64,000 nt of DNA from an uncultured Chloroflexia bacterium (lineage in GTDB: Bacteria > Chloroflexota > Anaerolineae > JAAYZQ01): assembly GCA_963700285.1 (NCBI GenBank), contig CAVOXA010000010.1, forward strand, positions 1,280,001-1,344,000, in the 5' to 3' direction. Under the pieces are notes generated by a model, which saw only the letters and a program-made list of their open reading frames with translations, had not been told where the DNA came from and did no database searches. This document shows positions 44,402 to 62,937 of the stretch, in pieces; the first letter of the stretch is position 1, and each line of letters begins with the position of its first letter. A program made the translations under genes and the position numbers.

Positions 44402-44713
44402 CTAGCCTGTCGCGGCATGAGCAAAGGGTCTGACTTCCCGCTCGAGACGAGCACCCAGCAGGTCTTCGGCCACGTCCAGATCATAGTCCACCTGCAAGCC
44501 CAGCCAGAACTCAGGAGACATGTCAAAGAAACGCGCCAGCCTCAGCGCCGTGTCAGCCGTTATGCGGCGCTTGCCCAGCACAATCTCATTGATGCGTCGA
44601 GCTGGTACACCGATGTCAATTGCCAGTCGATTCTGGCTCAAGCCCATCGGCTTGAGGAATTCCTCGAGCAGTACCTCTCCTGGGTGGACAGGATTGAGTT
44701 TATCCTCCGCCAT
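44402..44713 (-). CDS. higA: HigA antitoxin (XRE)
   Basis: PVHPGEVLLEEFLKPMGLSQ...ITADTALRLARFF...FWLGLQ. Confidence 0.92.
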   Translation of the reverse strand: MAEDKLNPVHPGEVLLEEFLKPMGLSQNRLAIDIGVPARRINEIVLGKRRITADTALRLARFFDMSPEFWLGLQVDYDLDVAEDLLGARLEREVRPFAHAATG

Positions 44714-44725
44714 AGTCACGCCTTT

Positions 44726-45851: not shown

Positions 45852-46997
45852 ATGAATCGCAAAGAGACCGAGGGCAAAGGGATCGCGACGCGCTGCATCC
45901 ATACCGGCGTTCCGGACGGTGGTTTGTGGGCGCCCGTCAAGACCCCACTCATCATGTCCAACAGCTATGACCTGGGAGGGCTGGCGGTTGCCGACCTGCC
46001 CGCCGAGGCTTTTGTTTACACGCGCAACGGCACGCCCAACGCCCGTTACCTGGAGGAAAAGCTGGCCGACCTGGAGGGGGCCGAGGACTGTGTTCTCACC
46101 GCCAGCGGCGTCGCCGCCATCTCTGGCTCCTTTCTGACGCTGCTGAACACGGGCGACCACATCATCTCCTCCGACGTGGTCTATATCGCCATCCACGACC
46201 TGCTGGTTGAGCATTGCCCCCAGCGTTTGGGCATCCAGACCAGCCTCGTCGATACCTCGGACCTGGCCGCGGTAAAAGCGGCGCTGACGCCCCAGACCAA
46301 GATCATCCACGTCGAAACGCCCGGCAACCCGACCACGCGCATCAGCGACATTGCCGCCCTGGCCGAGATCGCCCGGGAAGCCGGCGCCCTGCTCACGGTG
46401 GACAGCACCTGGTCGGGGTTGCTCAGCCAACAGCCGCTGGAACTGGGCGCCGACCTGGTCTTTCACAGTCTGTCCAAGTACGTCAACGGCCAGGGGGACG
46501 CCGTGGCCGGCGCCGTCCTGGGCAGCCAGGACCTTGTCGACCGGATACGCCAGTTTGCCGTGGTGACGCTGGGTGCTTGCATCAGCCCCTTCAACGCCTG
46601 GCAGATCATGCGCGGCTCAGAGACGCTGCCCCTGCGCCTGGAGCGCCATTCGGCCAATGCCCTGGCCGTGGCCGAGTTCCTCGAAGCCCACCCCAAGGTG
46701 GCCTGGGTGCGCTACCCCGGCCTGCCGAGCCATCCCCAGCACGAGACCGCCAGGGTGCAGATGAGCTACTACTCCGGGATGCTCAACTTTGACATCGTGG
46801 GCGACGCCAGCCAGCGCCTCGAGGTGATCCGCCGGCTCAAGTTCTTTCGCCACGCCACCTGCCTGGGCCACGACGAGAGCCTCATCGCCCTCTATCCATG
46901 GGAAGATCCGAGCTTCTACCGGGTCAGTGTCGGTCTGGAGGATGTCCAGGACCTCATCGACGATCTGGACCAGGCCCTGGCCGTAGTCGAGGTATAA
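45852..46997 (+). CDS. Trans-sulfuration PLP enzyme (cystathionine gamma-synthase/methionine gamma-lyase family)
   Basis: YTRNGTP, SGVAAI, ETPGNP, VDSTW, HSLSKY, SVGLED. Confidence 0.92.
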   Translation: MNRKETEGKGIATRCIHTGVPDGGLWAPVKTPLIMSNSYDLGGLAVADLPAEAFVYTRNGTPNARYLEEKLADLEGAEDCVLTASGVAAISGSFLTLLNTGDHIISSDVVYIAIHDLLVEHCPQRLGIQTSLVDTSDLAAVKAALTPQTKIIHVETPGNPTTRISDIAALAEIAREAGALLTVDSTWSGLLSQQPLELGADLVFHSLSKYVNGQGDAVAGAVLGSQDLVDRIRQFAVVTLGACISPFNAWQIMRGSETLPLRLERHSANALAVAEFLEAHPKVAWVRYPGLPSHPQHETARVQMSYYSGMLNFDIVGDASQRLEVIRRLKFFRHATCLGHDESLIALYPWEDPSFYRVSVGLEDVQDLIDDLDQALAVVEV

Positions 46998-46999
46998 GA

Positions 47000-47034
47000 C
47001 AACCTCCCGCAGGCTTCAAGCCTGCGGGAGGTTG
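47000..47034. repeat. Perfect 17-bp inverted repeat (REP-like hairpin)
   Basis: caacctcccgcaggctt-c-aagcctgcgggaggttg. Confidence 0.75.
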
Positions 47035-47059
47035 CCCAGTATTCACACAAGGAGGAAAC

Positions 47060-48495
47060 ATGATCGAGACCCAAGGTTTGAGACAGACGAGCGCCCACTA
47101 CTCTCGGCTGGGCGCCCAAGAGTGCGAAAAGATCCACCGGGCCAGCATCGAGATCCTCGAGCATGTCGGCGTGGAGGTCCACGACGAGAAGGCGCTGGAC
47201 CTGCTGGTCAAAGGTGGGGCCCAGGCCGACGGCATCGTCGTCCGCATCCCGGAGCTGATGGTCCTCAAGGCCCTGGCCGTCACGCCCAAGGGCACGACCC
47301 TGTTCGACCAGAATGGCAAAGTCGCGATTCGAGCCCAGGGCCACAACAGCTACTATGGCGGCGGCTCCGACTGCCTCTACGTCCTGGACCACCGGACGAA
47401 CCAGCGGCGTCTGGCCGTGCTCCAGGACGTGGTCGACGCCCAGATCGTGCAGGACGCCCTGCCTGAGGTCAGCTTTGTGATGTCGGCCTTTCTGCCCTCC
47501 GACGTCGACTCCCGCATCTATGACCGCTACCAGATGGAGGCCATGCTCAACCACACCACCAAACCCATCGTCTTTGTCTCGCCCGACTTTGAAGGCTGCG
47601 AGCTGGCCATCGAGATGGCCGAGATCGTCGCCGGCGGCGCCGAGGCCTTCCAACGCCGTCCCTTTGCCACCTGCTACATCAATGTCACCGACGGTCTGCG
47701 TCGCCAACCAGGAGGCCCTGCAAAAGTGCATGTTCCTGGCCGGCAAGGGCCTGCCCCAATTGTACATCCCCCTGGGCGATGGGCCCCACAGCATCGCCGG
47801 CAACACGGCCTACCAGTGGACCGGGGTGCTGCTGGGCATCGTCCTGGCCCAGCTGGTGCGCGAAGGCTCGCCGGTCGTCGTCCCCGGCTGGGGCGGCGGG
47901 CTCAAGAACATGAAGACCATGGCCAGCTCCTACGGCCAGGCCGATCGCCAGGGCATCGCCCTGGCCATGGGCCATTACTACGGCCTGCCCACCTTTGGCA
48001 TGGCCGGCTGCACCGACTCCAAGGTGCTCGATGCCCAGGCGGGGGCCGAGATCGCCCTCAGCCTGGTGCTGCAGACCCTCGAAGGCGGCCACATCATCCA
48101 CGACCTGGGCTTCATGGACTCGGGCATGCAGGGTTCGCTGGCCCTGATGGCCATCTGCAACGACTGGATCCAGTGGATCCGCCACGCCACCGGCGGCGTC
48201 GACGTCAGCCACGGAGGGCATGGCCCTGGACGTGATCCACGAGCTGGGGCCCAGCGGCGACTACATATCCCACCCACACACCCTGGCTCACTGCCGCGAC
48301 GGCTGCTACCCCACGCTGGTCGACATGGGCAACTATTCACGTTGGGAAGCGCAGGGCTCGTTGGACATGACCCAGCGGGCGGCCAAGATGGTGGACCGCA
48401 TCCTCGAGAAGCACGAGGTCGAGCCGCTGCCGCCCGACGTCCAGCGTGACGTCCACGCCGTAGTCGAGCGCGAAGCCAGCCGCGTCGGCGCCTAA
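47060..48495 (+). CDS. MttB-superfamily (trimethylamine methyltransferase-like) corrinoid methyltransferase, frameshifted
   Basis: IHRASIEILEHVGV, TTKP, GLPTFGMAGCTDSKVLDAQAG, HDLGFMDSG, ALDVIHELGP.G.YI..HT. Confidence 0.85.
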
Positions 48496-48613
48496 GCCGA
48501 AAGAGGATTCACCGCAGAGGCACAGAGAACGCAGAGTCAAAACCTTCTTTTGGTTTTTTCTATGTGTTCTCCGCGCCTCTGCGGCAAGATCCTGGCTCCA
48601 GGACGGACTGATC

Positions 48614-49353
48614 ATGCGAATCCATGGAAACCGGGGCCTGGGCATTATCATCGTCGACGACGTCTATCCCGGCTTCCCCGGCGACGTGCGCAACGCCAGC
48701 GCCTATCCCTTTCCCATCCAGTACGAGATCGCCCAGGGCGTGGACCTGGTCAAGCTGGTCGTGGACGAGGACAAGTCGCCCTGCCTGGGACCGGTGCTGC
48801 GCGCGGCGCGAGAAACTGGAATCCATGGGCTGCCGGGCCATCGCCGCCGAGTGCGGCTATTTCGCCTACTTTCAGCAAGAGGTCGCCGCCCACGTCAACG
48901 TGCCCGGTGTTCATGTCCAGCCTGTTGCAGGTGCCCTGGGCCCAGCAGCTCATCGGGCCCGACAAGGTCGTGGGCATCCTGGCCGCCTCCTCGCCCTTTC
49001 TGACTGAGGCTCACCTGGCAGCGGTCGGCGTCCAGGTCGGCAGCAATTACGTCGTCGCCGGGGCGATGGACGGCGGCCGCTGCCCGGAATTCGAGAACCT
49101 GTGGATCTCGGACCTGCGCCCCGACCCGCCGCGGGCTGACTATGAGACGGCCGAGCGGGATTTCGTGGCCGTGGGCGTCGACTTTTTCCGGGAGCAGCCC
49201 AACATGGGGGCCATGGTCCTGGAATGCACCGGCTTTCCGCCCTTTGCCCGCGCCCTGCAGCGCGAGATCGATATCCCCCTCTTTAGCTGGGGGACCCTGC
49301 TGGACTATGCCTACTCGGTCGCGGTCCACCGCGACTACTATGGGCATGTCTAG
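48614..49353 (+). CDS. Asp/Glu/hydantoin racemase-superfamily protein, frameshifted
   Basis: PGDVRNASAYPFP, AECGYF, PVFMSSL, VLECTGFPP. Confidence 0.78.
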
Positions 49354-49433: not shown

Positions 49434-49751
49434 GAATTCGAATGGGACGAGCAGAAGGCTCGGGTCAACCTCATGCGCGCCGAGTACGATTTTCGCGGCG
49501 GTGTTCGTGGCAAACACCACGAGACCTACCGCCAGGGCCACGCCGTCAAGATCCAGACAGAGGACGGAACCGTTGATGTCCGCTGTTACACCCTCGAAGA
49601 CGGCGCGGTCCTATTGGAACCCGAGGTCCGCCAGTATTTCCCCGACTCTGAATCTGTGAACAAGGCTCTCCGCGCGCTAATCGACCTCGTGCCCGCCAAG
49701 CGCAAGGCCGTTGCCGAATCCCAGGATGATTATGAGATAAGCCAGGAATGA
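49434..49751 (+). pseudogene. BrnA-like antitoxin (49473..49751) preceded in frame by a BrnT N-terminal remnant
   Basis: EFEWDEQKARVNL (BrnT start motif) runs directly into MRAEYDFRGGVRGK...VLLEPEVRQYFPDSESVNKALRALI. Confidence 0.65.
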
Positions 49752-50235
49752 GCTAACCCCTCGCCCCGAAAAGCCGCAAGGCCTGTCGCGGGCGTCCCCC
49801 TTGACGCCATGTCACTGCCCTGCCACTGATCCTCCAACGCTCGAGCCATGCCCGCGCTGAATCCCTTGGCAAGCTCGGGAGGGGCCTCAGTCGAATCGTC
49901 CGCGACGTGGCGATATCGACACGCTCCAAGCAGCTATCGTCGTTCAGCTACAATTCCGGCCCGTGCACGCTTTGGACTCGAAAGCGACCAGATCTGCGGG
50001 TCCGTGCCTCGTCATACCCCCTGGGCTCGCCTCCATGCTTTGCGGATCCACCCCAGCAATGGTATAATAACTACCGGGTGAGTCTGTTGAATGTTGACCT
50101 TCCACCCTCACGGGGACAGCGCCGATGGCAAAGGACACGAAAGCTCACCTGGACGGTTCCGGAGCCATTGCCCAGGACCACAGCCCCTCTGGTTGCCGTC
50201 CGCAGCGTGTGCCGCGCACAAGGAGTACAAAGGCC

Positions 50236-50727
50236 ATGAGAGACGACTTTAACAAGCAAACCATAGAAACCCTGGCGGACAGAGCCGGCAACCGTTGCTC
50301 TAACCCAGAGTGCCGCCAGCCTACCAGCGGCCCGCGCAGCGAGTCGACCAAGACGGTCAACATCGGCGTCGCCGCCCACATCACGGCCGCTTCAGAGGGT
50401 GGCCCTCGCTACGACCCCACGCTCACCCCCGAGCAGCGCCGACACCCCGACAACGGCCTCTGGCTCTGCCAGAACTGCGCCAAGCTGGTGGACAACGACG
50501 CCCTGGCATATCCGGTGGACCTGCTGCAGGTATGGAAGCGCCAGGCCGAAGATACGGCCCGGCAGGAGCTCCAGCGGCGCGGGGCGCCCAAAGACCAGCC
50601 CGGCGCCTCTTCCCGGGTCGTTCACACCGGCAGCGGAGGACTGGCCCAGGACGGCAGCGTGGCCGCCGGCAAGGGTGGCGTCGCCGTAGACGGAGACGTG
50701 CACGGCGATATCCGCATCGGTGGGTGA
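50236..50727 (+). CDS. HNH-type endonuclease with C-terminal Gly-rich motif (frame open from 50125)
   Basis: RAGNRCSNPEC, AAHITAASEGGPRYD, NGLWLCQNCAKLVD; tail GSGGLAQDGSVAAGKGGVAVDGDVHGDI. Confidence 0.78.
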   Translation: MRDDFNKQTIETLADRAGNRCSNPECRQPTSGPRSESTKTVNIGVAAHITAASEGGPRYDPTLTPEQRRHPDNGLWLCQNCAKLVDNDALAYPVDLLQVWKRQAEDTARQELQRRGAPKDQPGASSRVVHTGSGGLAQDGSVAAGKGGVAVDGDVHGDIRIGG

Positions 50728-50742
50728 GGAAGGCAGCAGACC

Positions 50743-53549
50743 ATGACGGACGACCTCGCCAGACGCTTGGCCCAACTTCGAGACGCCTACGAGAGCGGGA
50801 TTCTGGACGACGACACCTACCAGGCGACCATGGCTGCCCTTAGTGCGGAGCCTGACGGGACAGCGATACTGGTTGGCTCTGGGGCCGTCGCCCAAAAGGA
50901 CAGCGTCGCGGCTGGTGCCGGCGGCGTGGCCGTAGGCCAAGACGTGGAAGGTCACATCATCTATGCCGAGCAGGGTGCGACCGTCGTCATCGGCGAGGCG
51001 CCCGGTAAAAATGACCGCCGTGGACCGCGAGTCGGCTCTGGGCCGCTACCTGCACCACGTCATCAGCCGCAACCGCTACTTGCAGTTCCAGGGCATCCGC
51101 TCCGGCGGGCGGCTGGTCCACATCGAGCTGGACCGCATCTACGTCACCCTGCGGGCCACCCGGCAGCGAGTGGTCGCAGGTGGAGGATGACTGGCTGGCT
51201 CACGAGGCGGCCCTGGCGCCCGGCGAGTGCCGCCGCTTGCGCAGGGCACGGCCGTCATGGCCTCCACCGAGACCGTGACCGTCAGCGTCAACGAGGCCCT
51301 GGCCGAGCACTCCCGCCTGGTCGTGCTGGGCGACCCTGGCAGCGGCAAGACGACGCTGCTGCGCTACCTGGCCTTGCTCTATGCCCGCGACCTGGCCGAG
51401 GGTTCGACATCTGGTCCGGGACAAGCTGGGGCTGGACGAGAGCGGCCGACTGCCCATTCTGCTGCCCCTGCGCCAGATCGGCGCCTATCTGCAGGCCCAC
51501 CGTGCTGTCGAGGACGGCACCGAGGGCCACGTCCTGCTGCTCGACTTTCTGTTGCGTACGTTGGCAAATGAGCGCATCACGCTTGCCGGCCGACTTTTTC
51601 GACGAGTGGCTGGCCAGGAGGCAAGGCTGTTATCCTGCTGGACGGGCTGGACGAGGTGGCCGATCCCAACCTGCGGCGGCGGGTCTCCGCCTGGTGGAGG
51701 CCTTCACCCGCGCCTATCCTGACTGCCGCTACGTCGTCACCAGCCGCATCGTGGGCTACACCGGCCCGGCCCGCCTGGGCTGAAGGCTACGCCACGACCA
51801 CCGTGCGCGATTTTACGCATGGCCGACGTAGAGCGCTTCCTGGCCAACTGGCACCGCCTGGTGGCCGTGGGCCAGATGGGACCGGGCGACAGCGCCGAAG
51901 CCTACGCCGCCGAGCAGACCCGACCAATTGCTGCGGGCCATTCGGGCCAACGAGCGCATCCGCGAGCTGGCCATCAATCCCCTGATGCTGACCGTCATCG
52001 CCATGGTCCACCGCGACCGGGTCAAGCTGCCCGACCGCCGGGCCGAGCTCTACGCCGAGGCGGTGGATGTGCTGCTGGGCAAGTGGGAGGAGGCCAAGGG
52101 CGTGCAGGAGGTGCCCATCCTGCGAGGGCCAACCCTTTGACACCGGCGACCGGCGGCTGATGCTGCAAAGCGTGGCCCTGCGCATGCACGAGGCGGAGCA
52201 GAAGGAGGTGGCGTCGGCGACCTGCGCCGCTGGCTGGGCGAGATGTTCCACGAGATCGTGGGCGACTGGCGAGCTGCGGAGCGGGCGGTCAACCGCTTCC
52301 TGCATGTCATCGAGGAACGGACCGGTCTGCTGGTGGCCCGTGGCGAGGGGGTCTATGCCTTCTCGCACCTGACCTTCCAGGAGTACCTGGCCGCCCTGGC
52401 CGTGGCCGCGCGGGACGACTACGTGGCCTACACCCTGACCCGCGTCGCCCGATCCCTGGTGGCGAGAGGTGATCCTGCTGGAAGCCGGCTATCTGAGCTA
52501 TGCAGAGCAAGGAGCGCACCACGCGCTTGATCCGGGCCATCGCCGAACTGGAAGAGGAGCCGGAGCCCTTCACAACCTGGTGCTGGCCGCCGAGTGCCTG
52601 CGCGACGTGGGCGTCGAACCGGGTGGAAGGAAGCCTTTGGAGACAGAGGTGCAACAACGGTTGCGGTCCGAGCTGGAGCGCGGTTCGCCCATCGTAGTTT
52701 CGGCGCGTCTCTGGCAGGTTCAGCCACGCGTTGCCTGGGTTCTGACGAGCGTGGCATCTGGCGGCCGATGGCCGCTGAGCCGCATTGAGCAGTGGCCGAT
52801 TCGGCGTCCGATCGCCGTTTTGGACGAGCCCTACGGCGAGCCGGAGTGGGTTGAGATTCCGGCCGGAGAGTTTTGGATGGGAGAGGAGAGAGACGATTCA
52901 CCGTGTTAACCTTGAGACTTTTCGCATCTCCCGCGTGCCCATCACCAACGCCCAGTACCGACTTTTTTGTGGAGGCAATGGGTCACGAATCACCATACCA
53001 TTGGGAGGAAGGCCGCCCGCCCAAAGGGTCGGAGAGCCATCCGGTGGTCAACGTCACCTGGCACGATGCCCTGGCCTATGCCGCTGGCTGAGCGAGGCGA
53101 CTGGCAAGCAATACTACCCTGCCCTCGGAGGCAGAATGGGAAAAGGCGGCGCGGGGGGACGCGGACAAACGGGTATTCCCCTGGGGCGATGCCTTCGAAA
53201 CGACTCGCTGTAACTGTAGGGAACTAGGATTGGGCAATACCACGCCGGTGGGCATCTTTCCCGAGGGGGCCAGTCCCTACGGTGTTTTGGACTTGAGCGG
53301 CAACGTCTGGGAGTGGACGCGGAGCTTATGGGGGTGACCGAGTACTCGGTTCATACCCGTATGATCCAGAGGGATGGGCGTGAGAACCTGCAGGCCGGAG
53401 ATGACGTCCTCCGGGTGGTGCGTGGCGGGTCGTTCGTCAGTGATCAGAGGGGCGTCCGCTGCGCCTACCGCTTCAGGCACGGCCCGGTCAACAGGCGCAA
53501 CTATGTCGGGTTTCGGGTGGTGGTGGCCCCCGTTACCTCTGGTCTCTGA
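50743..53549 (+). CDS. NACHT NTPase - FGE-sulfatase/C-type-lectin-fold protein 1 (SHOCT-like N-terminus); many frameshifts, possibly a pseudogene
   Basis: [37 protein letters not shown]; [61 protein letters not shown]. Confidence 0.82.
53409..53549 (+). other. DGR-like variable region VR1
   Basis: Colinear with 57707..57847; 18 mismatches in 13 codons, all at codon positions 1 and 2. Confidence 0.85.
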
Positions 53550-53588
53550 CCCTCCGATCTCTGGATCTCTGATCCGCTGTCCTCTGAA

Positions 53589-53607
53589 ATCGCGCCGAAG
53601 GCGCGAT
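53589..53607 (+). promoter_or_regulatory. DGR-type target hairpin downstream of VR1
   Basis: ATCGCGCC-GAA-GGCGCGAT, within a 63-bp post-stop segment identical to the one after VR2. Confidence 0.75.
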
Positions 53608-53624
53608 CGCCGTGGGCGAAATTC

Positions 53625-54055
53625 AGACCTGACAGGTCTCAGAGAGCCGGTTGGTAGACCAGCAGGCCTGCAAAAAGGAGAGCTGCTGGCCGGCGCAGGT
53701 TCTGCTCAAGACCTGTCAGGTCTGAGGGAGCTGGCTGGTAGAGTAGGGGTCCCGAAAAAGGAGAGCTGCTGGCCGGCGCAGGTTCTGCTCAAGACCTGTC
53801 AGGTCTGAGGGAGCTGGCTGGTAGAGTAGGGGTCCCGAAAAAGGAGAGCTGCTGGCCGGCGCAGGTTCTGCTCAAGACCTGTCAGGTCTGAGGGAGCTGG
53901 CTGGTAGAGTAGGGGTCCCGAAAAAGGAGAGCTGCTGGCCGGCGCAGGTTCTGCTCAAGACCTGTCAGGTCTGAGGGAGCTGGCTGGTAGAGTAGGGGTC
54001 CCGAAAAAGGAGATCTGCTGGTCGGCGCAGGCCCTGCTCAAGACCTGACAGGTCT
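53625..54055. repeat. Tandem array of five 83-84 bp units delimited by six AGACCTGWCAGGTCT palindromes
   Basis: Palindromes start at 53625, 53709, 53792, 53875, 53958 and 54041; the three middle units are identical. Confidence 0.92.
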
Positions 54056-54071
54056 GTGGAAGGACTCGAGA

Positions 54072-54665
54072 ATGGTTAAACCAGTGCCACTGCAATACGG
54101 CCAAACCTACCACATCTACAGCCGGGGCAACAACCGGGAAACGATCTTTGTCGAGGAGCGCAACTATCGGCACTTTCTGCGTCTCTACGCTCAGCACGTG
54201 CTGCCAATTGCCGACACTTACGCCTACTGCCTGCTGCCCAACCACTTTCACCTTCTCGTGTACATCAAGGAAATGGACCATCCATCAGCTCCAGATCCAA
54301 AGCGATCACCCAGCCAGTACTTCTCCAACCTCTTGAATGCCTATGCCCGCGCCTTCAACAGGGCCTACCGTCGCAGCGGATCCCTCTTCCAGCGCCCGTT
54401 TGGCCGGAAACTGGTGGCATCCGATGGCTACTTCACCTGGCTTATCGCTTACATCCACCAGAATCCCCAAATGCACGGCATTGTCGATGACTTTCGCGGC
54501 TGGGACTACTCTTCCTACCAGGCTCTGAAGTCGAGCCAGCCGACGCGCCTGAGGCGAGAAGAGGTTCAGGCCCTGTTTGGTGGTCCTCGCGCGTTTTCCA
54601 TCTTCCACGAGCAGCAGATCCCATTGGGCCGGGTAGCTCCTCTGGTAGCTGAGGATTTCGACTAG
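54072..54665 (+). mobile_element. REP-associated tyrosine transposase (RAYT / Y1 HUH, IS200-like)
   Basis: YHIYSRGNN, AYCLLPNHFHLL (HUH), GSLFQRPF, YIHQNP, YSSY; palindromes on both sides (54041, 54670). Confidence 0.88.
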
Positions 54666-54697
54666 CCCCAGACCTGACAGGTCTTTGGAGGTGAACC

Positions 54698-57600
54698 ATG
54701 GACTTTACCTTTGACACCTGGAAAGAAGCAGCCGCAAACAGGCTGCAAAGCCTTGGCGACCGGCTGGAGCGTTTGAAAACACGGGAAGGGCCCTATCTCC
54801 TCTACGGCACCCTCTGCGGGCTGAGCCTCTGGCCGCTGGTGGAAGCGGCACAGTCCGGGCAGTTGCTGCCCGTGATCATGGCCCTGGGCGGCGTTGCCGG
54901 CGGTGTGGGGGGCAACCTCATCGCCGAGCAAATACAGCGCTGGCAGGACCAGGGCGCCGGGGTCAACGAGGAGACGGTCGCCGCCTGGGTGGTGGAAGGG
55001 GCTGCTGGCAACACCGACCTGCGCCAGGCGTTGGATTCGATCCTGGAGCGGCTCGAAGCGGTTCAGAACGCCGAAGCTGCCCTTGCAGTGGACGACCGGC
55101 AGTGGTTCGCGGGCACGCTTCGCGCGGAGATGGCGCAATTGGGCAACCTCCCCCGCTTTGAGGCGACGCTGATCGGCTCAGGGACCATCGCCCAGGACCA
55201 CAGCGTCGCAGCGGGTGCTGGCGGTGTGGCAGTGGGCCGGGATGTGGGCGGGGATGTCGTGATGCCCGGCGCGCACCAGGAAAAGCACTATCACCCTGCG
55301 CCCACGAGCGAGCAGCAGAGACAGCAAGAAAAAGAGGACCTGGACCGCTACCTGCGCAACCTGCAACGCCTTTGCAATGCCCTGCCCCTCGCCGCGATGG
55401 CTGAAGATGAAACAGTTCATCGCCGGGCCGAGGTCACGCTGAACCGGGTCTATATCTCCCTCAACACGACCGCCCGGGTGCCCTTGACGCAGGATGGCCA
55501 GGACCGCCACAGCCGCGAGCGTCCAGGATTTGGCGATAAAGAACGTCCGCTCACCGCGCTGGAGGCAACTGCCCGGGAAGCCCGCCTGGTCATCCTGGGC
55601 GACCCGGGATCCGGCAAATCGACCTTCGTCAACCACCTGGCCTACCTGCTCGCCGGGGCACGGCTGGGCCAGGGCGAGACCCCCGATGGCTGGCCCCACG
55701 GGCCATTGCTGCCCATCCGCATCCTGCTGCGCGAGTTGGCGGCCGTGCTGCCTGGGGATCAAGATCTCCAGGGCCTGCCTGCCGAAAAGCGGGCCGTCAG
55801 ACTCGTGGACGAGATCTGGAGCCACCTGCGACAGGAAACGGCGAGCACCTACCGGGCCGCGGGCGTGCACAGGATCCTGGAGCGAGAGGTAGACCGCTGC
55901 CAGGCCCTGGTCATTTTCGACGGATTGGATGAGGTGGCTCCGGAACGCCGCGGGATGGTCAGGGATGCGGTGGATGCATTTGGCCAGTTGTGTGGCGAGA
56001 ACCGGGTGTTGGTCACCTGCCGCGTGCGCTCGTACAGCAAGGGCGTTTCTCTCGGCTCCTTTGCCAGTGTCACCCTGGCCCCTTTCGAAGGCGACCAGAT
56101 CGAGGAATTTGTGACACGTTGGTATCAGGCTTTGGCAGATCTGGGCACCATCAAAAGCCAGGAGGCTGAAAAGCGGGCCAAGAACCTCCATGAGGCTGTC
56201 CAGCCCATGCAGGAGCTGGCACGCAATCCGCTGCTCCTGACGACGATGGCCGTGGTGCACACCGCCCAGGTGGAGCTGCCGCGCGAACGGGCCCGGCTGT
56301 ACCAGCGCTGCGTGGATGTGTTGCTCCGGCGCTGGCACAAACACAAGGTTGGAGAAGCACCGCTACTGGATCGACTGGGTGTGAGCGAAGCCGAGCTGCT
56401 GGCTGCTCTACGAGAGGTAGCCTACGAGGCTCATCATAGAGGTGGTACAGAAGAGGAAGGAGACCTGCCCCGCAGCTTGGTGCTCAAGATCATGGCCGGG
56501 CACCTGTCTGGGCACTATGGCCGTGCCGAACAGTTTCTGGAGTACGTTGACGCCCGGGCCGGCCTGCTCATCGGCCGGGGCGGGGCGGAGGAGCCGGTCT
56601 ACAGCTTCCCACACCGGACATTCCAGGAATACCTGGCCGGCTGCCACCTGGCGCTGGGCGGCCGGGATTTTGGCCGCCGCCTGCGGCGCCTGTTGGCTGA
56701 AGGCGATCGCTGGGCGCTGGCCTCTCAACTTGGCGCGGAACACCTTCTGTACAACGTCGGCGACGTCACACGCGTCCTGGATGCGAGCTACACCCTCTGT
56801 CCTGTTGCGGAGCCAGACCTGGAGGAAGCCTGGCGAGGGGTAGCTTGGGCCGGGCAGTTTGCCACGGAGGTGGGCCAGCGAAGGGTCGAGCAGGACGAGG
56901 ATGCGCCAGACGGCGGCGCGGCCTTTCTGCGCCGTCTGGTACCCCGGCTCGTCACGATTCTGGCCCAGGAGAAGCTTGGGCCAGTAGAGCGTGCCGCCGC
57001 CGGGCGCGCGCTGGGGGTCTTGGGTGACCCGCGGCCAGGCTTCGGTGTGGATCCCGAGTCTGGGCTTCCCGATCTTGCCTGGTGTGCGGTGCCTGCCGGT
57101 CCTTTCCCCATGGGCAGCGACGACGAGGATGAACTCGCTTTCGACAACGAGAAACCACAGCATGAGGCGGTGATAGCTTACGACTACCGCATTGCCCAGT
57201 ACCCGCTGACCAACCTCCAGTACGCCGCTTTTGTCAGCGCTCAGGGCTATCAAGAACGCGGCTACTGGACCGGGGCCGGCTGGAAATGGAAAGGCGACAA
57301 GACGGATCCACGCACCTTTGGCGGCTCTTTCGACCTGCCCAACCATCCTGTTGTGGGGCTGAGCTGGTATGAGGCTGTGGCCTTCTGCCGCTGGCTCACA
57401 GAAAAGCTGCGTGAGACGGGTGGCATTACTCAGAATGATGAGATCCGGCTGCCCACGGAGGCCGAATGGGAGAAAGCGGCGCGGGGAACCGGCGGGCAGA
57501 CCTACCCCTGGGGTGACGAGTTTGACCCGGCTCGCTGCAACATGTACGACACAGGGATTGGCAACACCAGCGCGGTAGGCGCCTTTCCTGGTAGTGCGTC

Positions 57601-57847
57601 CCCCTATGGCCTTCTGGACACGAGCGGGAACGTGTGGGAGTGGTGCGGCACCAAATGGTGCGAAAGTTATGAGGAGGAGCCTGACGAGTCTCTGGAAGGG
57701 GATGCCCTCCGGGTGGTGCGTGGCGGGTCGTTCGGCCTTAGTCAGAGGCTCGTCCGCTGCGCCTGCCGCTACTGGTACGGCCCGGACGGCTGGGACTACT
57801 ATGTCGGGTTTCGGGTGGTGGTGGCCCCCGTTACCTCTGGTCTCTGA
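54698..57847 (+). CDS. NACHT NTPase - FGE-sulfatase/C-type-lectin-fold protein 2 (intact, 1049 aa)
   Basis: [99 protein letters not shown]. Confidence 0.93.
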   Translation: MDFTFDTWKEAAANRLQSLGDRLERLKTREGPYLLYGTLCGLSLWPLVEAAQSGQLLPVIMALGGVAGGVGGNLIAEQIQRWQDQGAGVNEETVAAWVVEGAAGNTDLRQALDSILERLEAVQNAEAALAVDDRQWFAGTLRAEMAQLGNLPRFEATLIGSGTIAQDHSVAAGAGGVAVGRDVGGDVVMPGAHQEKHYHPAPTSEQQRQQEKEDLDRYLRNLQRLCNALPLAAMAEDETVHRRAEVTLNRVYISLNTTARVPLTQDGQDRHSRERPGFGDKERPLTALEATAREARLVILGDPGSGKSTFVNHLAYLLAGARLGQGETPDGWPHGPLLPIRILLRELAAVLPGDQDLQGLPAEKRAVRLVDEIWSHLRQETASTYRAAGVHRILEREVDRCQALVIFDGLDEVAPERRGMVRDAVDAFGQLCGENRVLVTCRVRSYSKGVSLGSFASVTLAPFEGDQIEEFVTRWYQALADLGTIKSQEAEKRAKNLHEAVQPMQELARNPLLLTTMAVVHTAQVELPRERARLYQRCVDVLLRRWHKHKVGEAPLLDRLGVSEAELLAALREVAYEAHHRGGTEEEGDLPRSLVLKIMAGHLSGHYGRAEQFLEYVDARAGLLIGRGGAEEPVYSFPHRTFQEYLAGCHLALGGRDFGRRLRRLLAEGDRWALASQLGAEHLLYNVGDVTRVLDASYTLCPVAEPDLEEAWRGVAWAGQFATEVGQRRVEQDEDAPDGGAAFLRRLVPRLVTILAQEKLGPVERAAAGRALGVLGDPRPGFGVDPESGLPDLAWCAVPAGPFPMGSDDEDELAFDNEKPQHEAVIAYDYRIAQYPLTNLQYAAFVSAQGYQERGYWTGAGWKWKGDKTDPRTFGGSFDLPNHPVVGLSWYEAVAFCRWLTEKLRETGGITQNDEIRLPTEAEWEKAARGTGGQTYPWGDEFDPARCNMYDTGIGNTSAVGAFPGSASPYGLLDTSGNVWEWCGTKWCESYEEEPDESLEGDALRVVRGGSFGLSQRLVRCACRYWYGPDGWDYYVGFRVVVAPVTSGL
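57707..57847 (+). other. DGR-like variable region VR2
   Basis: Partner of VR1 (offset 4298 bp, no indels). Confidence 0.85.
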
Positions 57848-58075: not shown

Positions 58076-60061
58076 ACGGCGCTGAAGCGCCGACTACGAA
58101 CGGGCTTGAGCCAGACCAGGTCCCGTTCGTAGTGCGCGTTTCAACGCGCTATCTGAGCCGCGGGTCCAGTTTTCAACCAGAACGGCGCTGAAGCGCCGAC
58201 TACGAACGGGCTTGAGCCAGACCAGGTCCCGTTCGTAGTGCGCGTTTCAACGCGCTATCTGAGCCGCGAGTCCAGTTTTCAACCAGAACGGCGCTGAAGC
58301 GCCGACTACGAACGGGCATGAGCCAGACCAGGTCCCGTTCGTAGTGCGCGTTTCAACGCGCTATCTGAGCCGCGGGTCCAGTTTTCAACCAGAACGGCGC
58401 TGAAGCGCCGACTACGAACGGGCATGAGCCAGACCAGGTCCCGTTCGTAGTGCGCGTTTCAACGCGCTATCTGAGCCGCGGGTCCAGTTTTCAACCAGAA
58501 CGGCGCTGAAGCGCCGACTACGAACGGGCTTGAGCCAGACCAGGTCCCGTTCGTAGTGCGCGTTTCAACGCGCTATCTGAGCCGCGGGTCCAGTTTTCAA
58601 CCAGAACGGCGCTGAAGCGCCGACTACGAACGGGCTTGAGCCAGACCAGGTCCCGTTCGTAGTGCGCGTTTCAACGCGCTATCTGAGCCGCGGGTCCAGT
58701 TTTCAACCAGAACGGCGCTGAAGCGCCGACTACGAACGGGCTTGAGCCAGACCAGGTCCCGTTCGTAGTGCGCGTTTCAACGCGCTATCTGAGCCGCGGG
58801 TCCAGTCTTCAACCAGAACGGCGCTGAAGCGCCGACTACGAACGGGCTTGAGCCAGACCAGGTCCCGTTCGTAGTGCGCGTTTCAACGCGCTATCTGAGC
58901 CGCGGGTCCGGTTTTCAACCAGAACGGCGCTGAAGCGCCGACTATGAACGGGCATGAGCCAGACCAGGTCCCGTTCGTAGTGCGCGTTTCAACGCGCTAT
59001 CTGAGCCGCGGGTCCAGTTTTCAACCAGAACGGCGCTGAAGCGCCGACTACGAACGGGTTTGAGCCAGACCAGGTCCCGTTCGTAGTGCGCGTTTCAACG
59101 CGCTATCTGAGCCGCGGGTCCAGTTTTCAACCAGAACGGCGCTGAAGCGCCGACTACGAACGGGCATGAGCCAGACCAGGTCCCGTTCGTAGTGCGCGTT
59201 TCAACGCGCTATCTGAGCCGCGGGTCCAGTTTTCAACCAGAACGGCGCTGAAGCGCCGACTACGAACGGGCATGAGCCAGACCAGGTCCCGTTCGTAGTG
59301 CGCGTTTCAACGCGCTATCTGAGCCGCGAGTCCAGTTTTCAACCAGAACGGCGCTGAAGCGCCGACTACGAACGGGCATGAGCCAGACCAGGTCCCGTTC
59401 GTAGTGCGCGTTTCAACGCGCTATCTGAGCCGCGAGTCCAGTTTTCAACCAGAACGGCGCTGAAGCGCCGACTACGAACGGGCATGAGCCAGACCAGGTC
59501 CCGTTCGTAGTGCGCGTTTCAACGCGCTATCTGAGCCGCGGGTCCAGTTTTCAACCAGAACGGCGCTGAAGCGCCGACTACGAACGGGCTTGAGCCAGAC
59601 CAGGTCCCGTTCGTAGTGCGCGTTTCAACGCGCTATCTGAGCCGCGGGTCCAGTTTTCAACCAGAACGGCGCTGAAGCGCCGACTACGAACGGGTTTGAG
59701 CCAGACCAGGTCCCGTTCGTAGTGCGCGTTTCAACGCGCTATCTGAGCCGCGAGTCCAGTTTTCAACCAGAACGGCGCTGAAGCGCCGACTACGAACGGG
59801 CATGAGCCAGACCAGGTCCCGTTCGTAGTGCGCGTTTCAACGCGCTATCTGAGCCGCGGGTCCAGTTTTCAACCAGAACGGCGCTGAAGCGCCGACTACG
59901 AACGGGCATGAGCCAGACCAGGTCCCGTTCGTAGTGCGCGTTTCAACGCGCTATCTGAGCCGCGGGTCCAGTTTTCAACCAGAACGGCGCTGAAGCGCCG
60001 ACTACGAACGGGCATGAGCCAGACCAGGTCCCGTTCGTAGTGCGCGTTTCAACGCGCTATC
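58076..60061. repeat. 106-bp tandem array (18 full units + 78-bp partial); each unit is an inverted pair of GTAG-type REP-like hairpins
   Basis: Unit starts at 58076, 58182 ... 59984; stems cggcgct/agcgccg, actacgaacggg/cccgttcgtagt and gcgcgtt/aacgcgc. Confidence 0.95.
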
Positions 60062-60270: not shown

Positions 60271-60299
60271 TTGACGCCAGGGGGTTCGCATGCTATAAT
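60271..60299 (+). promoter_or_regulatory. Sigma70 promoter with extended -10
   Basis: TTGACG-17 bp-TATAAT, with TG at the extended -10 position. Confidence 0.7.
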
Positions 60300-60379
60300 T
60301 GTCCACGCAGGTCGACCCATCCACCACCGCGCAAAAGCGACCCGCTACCCAATCCAGGCTCAGTCAAGGAGGATGCCAG

Positions 60380-61513
60380 ATGCGCATCACGCGATTCACA
60401 GCCTACCGGTTGGACGCACCCGTCGTCGAGGCGGAGGGCGCCCGGATCTCGGGAGGGCGCAGTTTCAGTGACTATACCACGACCATCGTCAAGGTCGATA
60501 CGGATGCGGGAACAGTCGGCTGGGGCGAGAGCGCGCCCTACGGTCCCCAGTACCTGCCCTACATCGCCGGCGCCATCCTGCCGGGACTGGACATCGTGGT
60601 GCCCAAGCTGCTGGGACAGAATCCCCTGGCCATCCAGGCCATCAACGAGACGATGGACCTGACGCTGTACGGCCATCCCCACGTCAAGACAGCCGTTGAC
60701 ATGGCTTGTTGGGACATCCTGGGCAAACAGGCCGGTCTGCCGCTCTACGAATTGCTGGGCGGCAAGCTGGTCCCGGCCCCCGAGGTCCAGGCTTTCATCC
60801 TGCGTACCCCCGGCGACGCACTCCTGGAAATGATCGACGGCCACCGGGCCAACGGCGTCCACCACTTTTCCAGCAAGTTCTCAGGCGACCTGGAGGTCGA
60901 CATCGAGTACCTGCGCTTCGTGGGCGCCTACATGCGCACGGGAGAATCGATCAGCCTGGACGCGAACCGGGGTTACCGCCTGGACGAGGCGCTGCGCCTG
61001 GTGCGCATGGCCGGCGAGGTGGATCTCATGCTGGAACAGCCCTGCGCCACCATTGAAGAATGCCGCGACCTGAGGCTGCGTGCTGGCGTGCCGGTCATGC
61101 TCGACGAGGAGATCAAGACGGTCCACGACCTGACCCGCGCCTACCACATGGGCGCCATGGATGCCCTGAACCTCAAGATCGGCCGCGTCGGCGGCATTAC
61201 CAAGGCCCGCCTGATCCGCGATGTCTGCGCCAGCCTGCGCATCCCCATCTACATGCAGGACACTGCCGGGACCAGCATTGTTGAAGCGGCTATCGCCCAC
61301 CTTGCCCACTCCACGCCGCCCCGGGCGCTGCTGGCCACCTGGGACGTCCAGGGCATGATGCCGCTCAAGACCGCCGAGGGACGACCCACTTATAAGGACG
61401 GCCGGATCTACGCCTCTGACGGGCCGGGTCTGGGTGTTGAGCCCTTGCTGGACGTGATTGGTGAGCCTGTCGCTGCCTGGGAATTGTCAGGATCACCTGG
61501 AGGACAGATATGA
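60380..61513 (+). CDS. Enolase-superfamily racemase/epimerase (proline-betaine / hydroxyproline-type subgroup likely)
   Basis: GWGESAPYGPQYLP, GHPHVKTAVDMACWDILGK, DAN, EQPC, DE, NLKIGRVGGITKAR, AHLAHSTP. Confidence 0.85.
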   Translation: MRITRFTAYRLDAPVVEAEGARISGGRSFSDYTTTIVKVDTDAGTVGWGESAPYGPQYLPYIAGAILPGLDIVVPKLLGQNPLAIQAINETMDLTLYGHPHVKTAVDMACWDILGKQAGLPLYELLGGKLVPAPEVQAFILRTPGDALLEMIDGHRANGVHHFSSKFSGDLEVDIEYLRFVGAYMRTGESISLDANRGYRLDEALRLVRMAGEVDLMLEQPCATIEECRDLRLRAGVPVMLDEEIKTVHDLTRAYHMGAMDALNLKIGRVGGITKARLIRDVCASLRIPIYMQDTAGTSIVEAAIAHLAHSTPPRALLATWDVQGMMPLKTAEGRPTYKDGRIYASDGPGLGVEPLLDVIGEPVAAWELSGSPGGQI

Positions 61514-62937
61514 ACACCTTGGCAACGATGCTGAGCCAGGAAGAGGTCGAGGCCGTACACGAAGCCACCCTAGAGATCCTGGAGACCACCGGCCTGCTGG
61601 TCCAGAACCGCGAGGCGCGGGATCGTTTTGCCGCGCATGGCTGCCGCGTCGACGGGAGCACGGGGATCGTCCGTTTCCCCCGGACCGTCGTCGAGGAGCA
61701 CCGCCAGGCGTTTCCCCCCACCTTTACCTTCCACGGCCGCGACCCGGACCTGGACCGTACGCTTCCGGATGACGGCCCGTTGATGATGACCGGCAGCGCC
61801 GCGCCCGACATCATCGATCCCGCCACAGGCGAGGTACGGCGCGCGACTTCGGCCGACATCGCGCGTATGGCCCACCTGGTCAACGAGCTGCCTGGCTACG
61901 ACGTCTTTTCTATTGCCACGACGGCCGACGATGCCCCGCCGGGCCGCCAGGGCTTCACGCGTTTCTATCCATCGCTCAAGCACTGCCTGAAGCCGATCCG
62001 GGCCAGCGCGCCGGCCCTGGCGGACGCGGACGATGTCCTGGAGATGTGCACCCTCATCGCCGGCAGCGAAGACACCTTCTGGGAGCGGCCCTTTGTGGTC
62101 TTTGTCTACTGCGCCACCATCTCGCCGTTGACCATGGACGTCGAATCCACGGAGCGGCTGATGCGCTTCGCCGAACGAGGCATCCCCAGCCAGAGCGTGG
62201 TCACGCCCAACGCCGGCGTGTCGGCCCCGCTGACCCTGTTGGGCACCCTGGCCGTGGCCAACGCCGAGTTTCTGGCCCAATCGGTGCTGGTGCAGATGTC
62301 TCGTCCCGGCACGCCCCTCCTCTACGATACGCTGCCGACCGTCAGTGACATGCGTACCGGGGCCTACGCGCCGGGCGCGATAGAGACGGGCATCCTCACC
62401 ATGGGCTGCGCCCAGATGGCGCGCTTTTACGGTGTGCCCTCGGCCGGCTTTGCGGGCCTGACCAACGCCAAGGTGAACGATGCCCAGGCCGGCTACGAGA
62501 CCGGGCTGTCGGCCATGGCCGCCATGCTGGGCGGCGTGGACCTGCTGGCCATGGGCGGCTTGCTCGATGCCCTGATGGCCTTTGACTTTGGCAAGGCCGT
62601 TGTGGACCACGAAGTCGCCCTGATGCTCAAGCGGGTGGCGCGGGGCCTGGAATTCAGCCCGGACAACCTGGCCCTGGACCTCATCGCCGAGGTGGGCCCC
62701 GGCGGCATCTTTGCCGACCAGCGCCACACGCTGAAACGCATGCGCACGGAGGCGGTGCTGCCCGAGATCGCCGACCGCCGTCCCCGGGACCAGTGGGCCG
62801 CCGCTGGGGGCCGGGATGCCCACAGCCGGGCCCTGGCCAGGGCCAACGAGATCCTGCGCCACGACAACCCCGCGGTGTTTTCACCCGAGGTTGATGCCGC
62901 CATCCGCAGCCGCTTCCAGCTTGACCAGGGAGCGTAG
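61510..62937 (+). CDS. MttB-superfamily methyltransferase without in-frame amber codon (non-pyrrolysine, MtgB-like)
   Basis: VHEATLEILETTG, ISPL, APLTLLG, DMRTG, QMARFYGVP, DAQAGYE, VGPGG.F...HT. Confidence 0.9.
   Translation: MNTLATMLSQEEVEAVHEATLEILETTGLLVQNREARDRFAAHGCRVDGSTGIVRFPRTVVEEHRQAFPPTFTFHGRDPDLDRTLPDDGPLMMTGSAAPDIIDPATGEVRRATSADIARMAHLVNELPGYDVFSIATTADDAPPGRQGFTRFYPSLKHCLKPIRASAPALADADDVLEMCTLIAGSEDTFWERPFVVFVYCATISPLTMDVESTERLMRFAERGIPSQSVVTPNAGVSAPLTLLGTLAVANAEFLAQSVLVQMSRPGTPLLYDTLPTVSDMRTGAYAPGAIETGILTMGCAQMARFYGVPSAGFAGLTNAKVNDAQAGYETGLSAMAAMLGGVDLLAMGGLLDALMAFDFGKAVVDHEVALMLKRVARGLEFSPDNLALDLIAEVGPGGIFADQRHTLKRMRTEAVLPEIADRRPRDQWAAAGGRDAHSRALARANEILRHDNPAVFSPEVDAAIRSRFQLDQGA

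Follow-up and report, generated by a model that had tools for sequence, protein, structure and literature searches.

A BASS6-type tag shared by an HNH-like protein and two NACHT genes with diversity-generating retroelement repeats in an uncultured Chloroflexia bacterium

What does a stretch of 28 residues do when it ends a small HNH-like protein and recurs on the N-terminal side of two NACHT receptors encoded downstream? The question is raised by a locus within 64,000 nucleotides of DNA (positions 1,280,001 to 1,344,000 of contig CAVOXA010000010.1, assembly GCA_963700285.1) from an uncultured Chloroflexia bacterium, placed by GTDB in the Anaerolineae (JAAYZQ01). We refer to this whole stretch as the window and give positions within it, to the 28 residues as the tag, to the HNH-like protein as the effector and to the receptor genes, in their order, as NACHT1 and NACHT2; all three genes lie on the + strand. 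An earlier reading made from the DNA letters alone (the sequence-only reading) had noticed the tag and likened it to RHIM/BASS-type amyloid motifs. Our analysis assigns the tag to the class BASS6, identifies both NACHT genes as targets of a diversity-generating retroelement (DGR) and leads to a model in which the tag would connect receptors and effector. The DGR repeats and the lost metal ligand in the HNH-like domain had not been part of that reading.

Copies and class of the tag

Three full copies of the tag were found, on the effector side at 50629..50712 (translation, profile and match to BASS6 members) and on the receptor side at 50875..50958 in NACHT1 (translation and profile) and 55175..55258 in NACHT2 (translation; disordered in the monomer prediction, pLDDT below 50). 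These and a 10-residue partial copy, GSGAIAQDHS, at 50155 translate exactly as had been written down. The full copies agree pairwise in 19, 20 and 20 of 28 residues, and in the three pairs 10/19, 13/20 and 10/20 of the identical residues are encoded by different codons. Since third codon positions diverge (11-14 of 28 match) while first and second positions match (42-48 of 56), the tag is conserved as protein and not as DNA, which bears out the synonymous divergence that the sequence-only reading had claimed. In composition it is rich in G (24%), A (19%) and V (12%), with 5% Gln and 3% Asn. An internal repeat of 13 residues, suspected by eye, was unsupported (the best offset was 7, and weak).

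With a profile built from the three window copies, all of the 7.05-Mb genome was scanned as 153,049 six-frame stretches. The copies scored E about 1e-16 with the profile that they themselves had built, and no further tag was found in the genome, the next best site elsewhere having E 0.56 or worse; a wider 11-row profile likewise gave no copy outside the window locus in the same genome. Tag profile matches were present in 38/401 genomes of the window's class, in 5/401 genomes of a phylum-wide sample (all 5 of them in the window's class) and in 434 of 1.84 billion cluster representatives. Nothing meaningful came from searching PDB sequences with the tag profile.

The class of the tag was established by comparison with the effector-side BASS motifs in supplement 1 of PMC8086366, where the README maps class C09 to BASS6. 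By eye, the NACHT2 tag is identical to the C09 member A0A1W9UHV5 (A0A1W9UHV5_9CHLR) at 19/28 residues, and the HNH tag to the C09 member A0A2M8U067 (A0A2M8U067_RHISP) at 22/31. Because of these near-identical motifs and the README mapping, we assign the tag by its sequence to the published class BASS6; it is hence no new motif. The earlier likeness to RHIM/BASS motifs is thereby narrowed on the BASS side, while on the RHIM side it did not hold: Pfam RHIM had no match in the window proteins, in 148 tagged proteins or in 25 effector-side tags, and an identity of the tag with RHIM / BASS3 was dropped.

The window tag resembles BASS6 (Dyrka et al., 10.1101/2020.01.06.895854) in motif sequence and length and also in placement, at the effector C-terminus and the NACHT N-terminus of adjacent, co-oriented genes. 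The window differs from BASS6 in that its sensors end in FGE/C-type lectin domains with DGR repeats, and not in TPR or WD40, and in that one tag is common to two receptors. That paper defined BASS1-10, and the non-Bell effectors listed in the portion drawn on here do not include HNH. BASS1 and BASS3 were tested there, and BASS classes other than that of the window tag are described as forming fibrils and cross-seeding.

The effector and the two receptors

The effector gene (50236..50727, +) encodes 163 residues comprising an HNH-like domain (about residues 1-116), a linker and the C-terminal tag. It most likely starts at ATG 50236 and not at 50125, because a ribosome-binding site (AGGAG) lies 10 nt upstream of this ATG and all close homologues start there. 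The partial tag copy at 50155 therefore lies outside the HNH protein, to which the sequence-only reading had given it. This copy (50155-50184, the first 10 tag residues) belongs to what looks like the relic 5' end of a lost gene (50125..50184, +). Relative to an orthologous locus in a Chloroflexota metagenome assembly (L001), 96+12 nt have been lost here; L001 has 108 more bases at this position and a separate 73-codon open reading frame (ORF) overlapping the HNH start, which begins, by eye, like bare-tag NTPase N-termini (P0043, P0049). Probably, a third receptor of the bare-tag type began here and has since decayed.

In profile searches the HNH domain was homologous to PDB entries 9om4 (E 2e-17), 7rwm (E 4e-10) and 8fm1 (E 1e-3), which identifies it at the sequence level as a Cap5-type HNH-like domain. 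HNH queries given as 50239-50724 exclude the start Met. In PsCap5, His56 acts as general base, and His91 and Asp95 hold magnesium (PMC12141522). The effector keeps His48 (equivalent to His56) and Asp86 (equivalent to Asp95) and has Ala82 at the position of His91. Thus, it shares the homologous domain and the His56 and Asp95 equivalents with the HNH effectors of Cap5 (CBASS) and SPARHA (PMC12141522, PMC12738770), from which it differs in this alanine and in having the tag instead of a SAVED or APAZ domain. The HNH domains of Cap5 and SPARHA become active on forming tetramers or filaments (PMC12141522, PMC12738770), and, as these relatives are switched on by oligomerisation, clustering on a fibril would be a plausible switch for the effector too. 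An AlphaFold2 model of the HNH protein had low confidence (pLDDT 44) and was not used.

Among the best 120 homologues of the HNH protein, 12 end in this tag, the window's own included. The tails in one supported subclade (97/93, 29 rows) comprise this tag, three further short tails of beta type and an EAD7-like adaptor, and they differ between the two members of one supported sister pair in it. This variety on a single subclade suggests that tails have been swapped as adaptors and that the tag occupies the adaptor slot. The EAD7 label of P0190 was supported by a pairwise match and not by Pfam, and the same label for P0179 was not supported. The same HNH-like domain carries other short glycine-/beta-rich tails in P0175-P0178, P0181-P0185, P0189 and P0227, with the consensus types VVARDIH (BASS2-like by eye), TGGGAYIGG and IGGxIQAG; these are candidates for further amyloid-type tags. 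The family lacking the His91 equivalent is very widespread: 1682 proteins reach E 1e-30 or better, and it occurs in fusions with many C-terminal domains, very long proteins included; its best PADLOC model is PDC-M68A. When tagged HNH genes were sought together with their gene context, one was found in 80 genome loci, and none in 79 metagenome loci or in 2 other loci of the phylum.

NACHT1 (50743..53549, +) starts 15 nt after the effector stop codon and consists of a SHOCT-like start, the tag, the NACHT domain and an FGE/C-type-lectin end. NACHT2 (54698..57847, +) is intact, with 1049 residues: a helical domain (1-159), the tag (160-187), Walker A at 301, Walker B at about 408 and an FGE/C-type lectin (796-1041). 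The tags had been placed in N-terminal linkers of the two proteins. They do lie on the N-terminal side, and they are preceded there by the 159-residue helical domain in NACHT2 and by a SHOCT-like segment of roughly 40 residues in NACHT1.

The all-helical domain of NACHT2 (54698..55174, +), which has a hydrophobic glycine-rich helix (57-75), was predicted with confidence (pLDDT above 90 over most of 1-160), the tag behind it as disordered. Foldseek gave no match for the domain at E 0.001 or better, and the best Z in a second fold search was 5.3; the ESM Atlas returned unnamed clusters only, none above 0.84, NNH2 and HetE-N being weak leads. A profile match of the NACHT2 N-terminus to Bell-like proteins was driven by the tag. 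Since 41/56 short homologues of the helical domain carry the tag, many of them ending soon after it and without an NTPase, this domain is a candidate for a second, built-in effector. One close homologue is labelled Anaerolineae. In these homologues (P0283-P0326) a second short motif, of the type FDQRGQxVxxQxN, often follows right behind the tag, and it is also present in a published BASS6 entry; these could possibly be double-tag adaptors.

Both receptor genes end in DGR variable repeats, located at 53411..53530 (+) in NACHT1 and 57709..57828 (+) in NACHT2 and encoding the tips of C-type-lectin-fold (FGE) domains. The repeats were compared with the template repeat of L001, which has 32 adenines and 88 other positions: in repeat 1, 19/32 adenines and 1/88 other positions were changed, and in repeat 2, 23/32 and 1/88. 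Where the two repeats differ, at 18 positions, the template has an adenine every time; upstream of the tips, the DNA is unrelated. By this sequence pattern, both NACHT genes are DGR targets. In L001, Avd, the template repeat and the reverse transcriptase (RT) lie between its two NACHT genes, and a complete cassette is present in L001/L145. In the window, this position is occupied by an 83-bp tandem array (5.2 copies, 53625-54056) and a REP-associated-type tyrosine transposase, together 53625..54665 (+). The ends of NACHT1 and NACHT2 have in common a segment (53531..53620, +) with a GC-rich hairpin (about 53590-53606, z -4.4), which we take to fit the homing signal expected behind a DGR variable repeat.

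The same contig holds a second DGR at 223740-228700 (L104), with an RT, an Avd remnant and a template repeat, whose target is a signal-peptide/membrane FGE protein of roughly 1075 residues; MoxR ATPase and vWA-type genes lie close to it on the other strand. This DGR (at 227-228.6 kb) was rejected as the template source for the window repeats, as it has its own target and its template matches only a core of about 50 nt.

The arrangement is close to that of known DGR-diversified STAND/NACHT-CLec (FGS) sensors (PMC10907252, clade 5D; PMC8195603, Fig. 2I), in which there are also two NACHT-CLec targets per locus, with variable repeats at the tips and Avd, template and RT between the targets, the latter being matched by the orthologous locus. 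The window itself, in contrast, is without the cassette. In those loci, sensors are linked to effectors via EAD or death-like domains, or have an N-terminus that is not explained, whereas the window receptors have the tag.

Placement of the tag in related loci

Tag placement was evaluated in 40 loci, 39 of them contig regions from a class-wide scan of 401 genomes and one from another search; the 13 weakest scan rows and those of the window genome and of genome G001 were left out. The 40 loci hold 59 tags, of which 28 precede Walker A in the same ORF, 23 are at most 45 residues away from a C-terminus and 8 are elsewhere. Tagged NTPase ORFs ended in an FGE signature in 22/27 cases; of the remaining five, three run off the contig, one breaks off ahead of its variable repeat and one ends differently. 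A tagged effector lies directly upstream of a tagged NTPase in 11/40 loci. The placement that the sequence-only reading had noticed in the window, at the effector C-terminus and the N-terminal end of NOD-like receptor (NLR)-like proteins, thus recurs in relatives, and the tag is not randomly spread over unrelated proteins.

The tagged small effectors of relatives are mostly Bell-like or caspase, and tag-ended CHAT, TIR, EAD7, EAD8 and one winged-helix-like protein also occurred among the protein matches. The window departs from the canonical Bell/NLR pair in that its effector has an HNH-like domain instead of the Bell helical domain; the Bell-like effectors of relatives carry the same tag, and are so labelled for their size, their N-terminus and a resemblance, judged by eye, to one listed Bell-side sequence. 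DGR parts were present in 7/40 loci, many of the 40 being cut short by contig ends, and template/repeat pairs with adenine-specific changes in 4 of the 5 such loci that were tested (L116, L128, L134 and L137); the template and repeat of L112 were discarded as a cognate pair because of 22/81 non-adenine mismatches. One protein in L137 (5107-9294, 1396 residues) unites a caspase, a tag, a Bell-like segment, a second tag, NACHT and FGE with the variable repeat, and adjoins an inverted DGR cassette.

Effector and receptor tags of neighbouring genes were compared in 14 pairs, the window and 13 loci (L118 was dropped as a near copy of L115). Tags of the same locus were on average 63% identical and tags of different loci 53% (permutation p 5e-5 with 14 pairs, a difference that kinship and old duplications could inflate), and 127/224 identical residues of neighbour pairs differ in codon.

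A possible amyloid switch and its alternatives

We favour, with a probability of about 0.65, the reading that the three genes form a module in which the tag is an amyloid switch, passing an invader signal from the NACHT receptors to the HNH-like effector and ending in cell death. Its established parts are the identity and placement of the tag, the BASS6 match, the adenine-specific variation of the tips and the homology of the effector to Cap5-type HNH; amyloid formation by the tag is inferred. The variable lectin tip would bind a phage or other invader molecule, and the NACHT domain would oligomerise and gather several disordered tags into a beta-solenoid seed. This seed could template the same fold in the effector tail and in the other receptor, and the resulting clustering might build an HNH oligomer, free the helical domain of NACHT2, or both, so that the cell would stop or die (abortive infection). 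Signalling by BASS11 in antiphage defence (10.1101/2024.11.07.622273) gives an experimental precedent for amyloid signalling against phage. In this Bab/Agp system, as in the window, a short motif is common to adjacent sensor and effector genes, but the motif class is another one, the sensor is TPR-GreA/B-PIN and the effector is pore-forming.

Several observations weigh against this reading. The position of His91 was occupied by Ala in 99, Gly in 13 and Ser in 4 of the 116 sequences that matched the pattern among the 120 best homologues of the effector, and by His in none. NACHT1 may be a pseudogene, and neither a cognate template repeat nor an RT was found at the locus or in the genome (assembly 89% complete). 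Only this genome and another of its genus have a tagged HNH gene beside a tagged NACHT gene; a further ten tagged HNH proteins come without gene context. In the comparison of neighbour pairs the window's own pair was middling, the NACHT1 tag ranking 5th of 14 for the HNH tag, and the related genomes compared there are not independent. The tag is low in Gln and Asn, in contrast to BASS motifs overall, for which Q/N enrichment is reported, and the published amyloid tests, in the portions of the papers used here, cover BASS1, BASS3 and BASS11, with BASS6 not among the classes tested.

The first of these points underlies the alternative that survives best, a possible though somewhat improbable one that is compatible with the tag model: the coupling would be real, the HNH-like protein would be non-cutting (DNA binding, a scaffold or a decoy) and killing would be left to the helical domain of NACHT2. 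The His91 equivalent was also absent in 55/55 pattern-matched loci, and, since the whole subfamily is thus without one metal-binding His, nuclease activity of the effector is doubtful. The hydrophobic helix of NACHT2 and the tagged short homologues of its helical domain point the same way. On the other hand, 24 aligned close homologues show no change in the general-base His, the Asp ligand, the zinc cysteines or an Asn/Asp close by, the effector core differs from its orthologue by 17 synonymous and 8 non-synonymous codon changes, and the best PADLOC match of the effector is PDC-M68A, a candidate defence protein (E 1e-27). In addition, neither fold nor profile searches demonstrated a link of the NACHT2 helical domain to Bell or MLKL.

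It is also conceivable, but unlikely, that the locus is a decaying copy, with NACHT1 a pseudogene, the third receptor a stub and the cassette replaced by transposase and repeats. NACHT1 shows about 20 apparent single-base indels against an intact relative (in our own alignment, where some may be real codon indels) and NACHT2 none; the relic at 50125 and the absence of Avd, template repeat and RT at the locus fit as well. As the genome yielded neither a cognate template nor an RT, the receptors, once diversified, may now be frozen. However, no in-frame stop occurs in the 2.8 kb of NACHT1, with which consensus errors would agree better, and ordinary nearby genes, as well as an ORF with RpoC motifs on the same contig, are likewise broken, which makes assembly errors the likely cause of the frameshifts. 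No close contig from related strains spans NACHT1; across 54025-56258 there is a short-read contig from a different sample, gapless and with 58 letters that differ. Decay would in any case concern this copy and not the family.

A still less probable alternative takes the tag as a homotypic adaptor that forms a finite beta-roll, such as a YadA-head-like trimer or a ring on the NACHT wheel, and no self-propagating amyloid. It would suit the low Gln/Asn content, the fact that on one and the same HNH domain the tag stands in for a globular adaptor of EAD7-like type, and the weak matches of 12/25 effector-side tags of relatives to Pfam YadA_head (PF05658; best E 3.5e-5). The matches listed with scores, however, stay below the cut-off (21-23 versus 25 bits), the window's own copies have no PF05658 match, and in length, terminal placement and partner set the tag agrees with BASS classes whose amyloid nature has been shown. 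That the tag is a neutral footprint of recombination, spread by duplication and domain shuffling without any signalling, is very improbable in the light of the codon data: the region is repeat-rich and shuffled, and the orthologous locus has NACHT bodies different from those of this genome, but the protein is conserved while codons diverge, placement is strictly terminal and the motif matches a published class.

The locus therefore presents a known motif class in a new setting, with a conserved tag that is real; as the class had already been published, the surprise is limited. In the literature we found no report of BASS tags coupled to DGR receptors or HNH effectors, within a coverage that is incomplete and with full published pair lists that may hold such a case. 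Papers on DGRs note targets with unexplained N-terminal extensions (PMC10907252, PMC8195603), and the word amyloid appears in the portions of them drawn on here only in the reference lists. In the group studied here, what joins sensor to effector may be the tag, which makes a concrete candidate for that missing connection. Amyloid-signalling tags and the DGR-diversified NACHT-lectin sensors of immunity in multicellular bacteria meet here in the same proteins. Tentatively, and with the odds rather against it, a whole family of modules could be envisaged in which a retroelement keeps rewriting an NLR-like ligand-binding tip while a constant, prion-like tag plugs into interchangeable killers (Bell-like, caspases, TIR, HNH-like). 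If so, hypervariable, antibody-like recognition would be wired to amyloid-templated cell death, including a nuclease that amyloid assembly would turn on by way of an altered active site; and if the HNH-like protein cuts DNA once seeded, a nuclease would join the effectors under amyloid control. A 163-residue effector and 28-residue peptides make a small testable system for BASS6.

The surroundings of the module contain further features. Directly behind NACHT2 lies a 106-bp tandem array (58076-60061, 18.7 copies, 98% identical), which together with the 83-bp array and the REP-type transposase looks like the MITE-like repeats that have been described near decayed DGR loci. By eye, a HigA-like antitoxin (44402-44719) and a small antitoxin-like ORF (49473-49751) were recognized in the window and a RelE-like/helix-turn-helix pair in L001 (5986-6731), so that toxin-antitoxin-like genes flank the module in both. 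Genes at 45852-49353 and 60299-62937, also labelled by eye, would encode methionine gamma-lyase, trimethylamine methyltransferase family, racemase-like and enolase-superfamily proteins, and several of them are frameshifted in the assembly.

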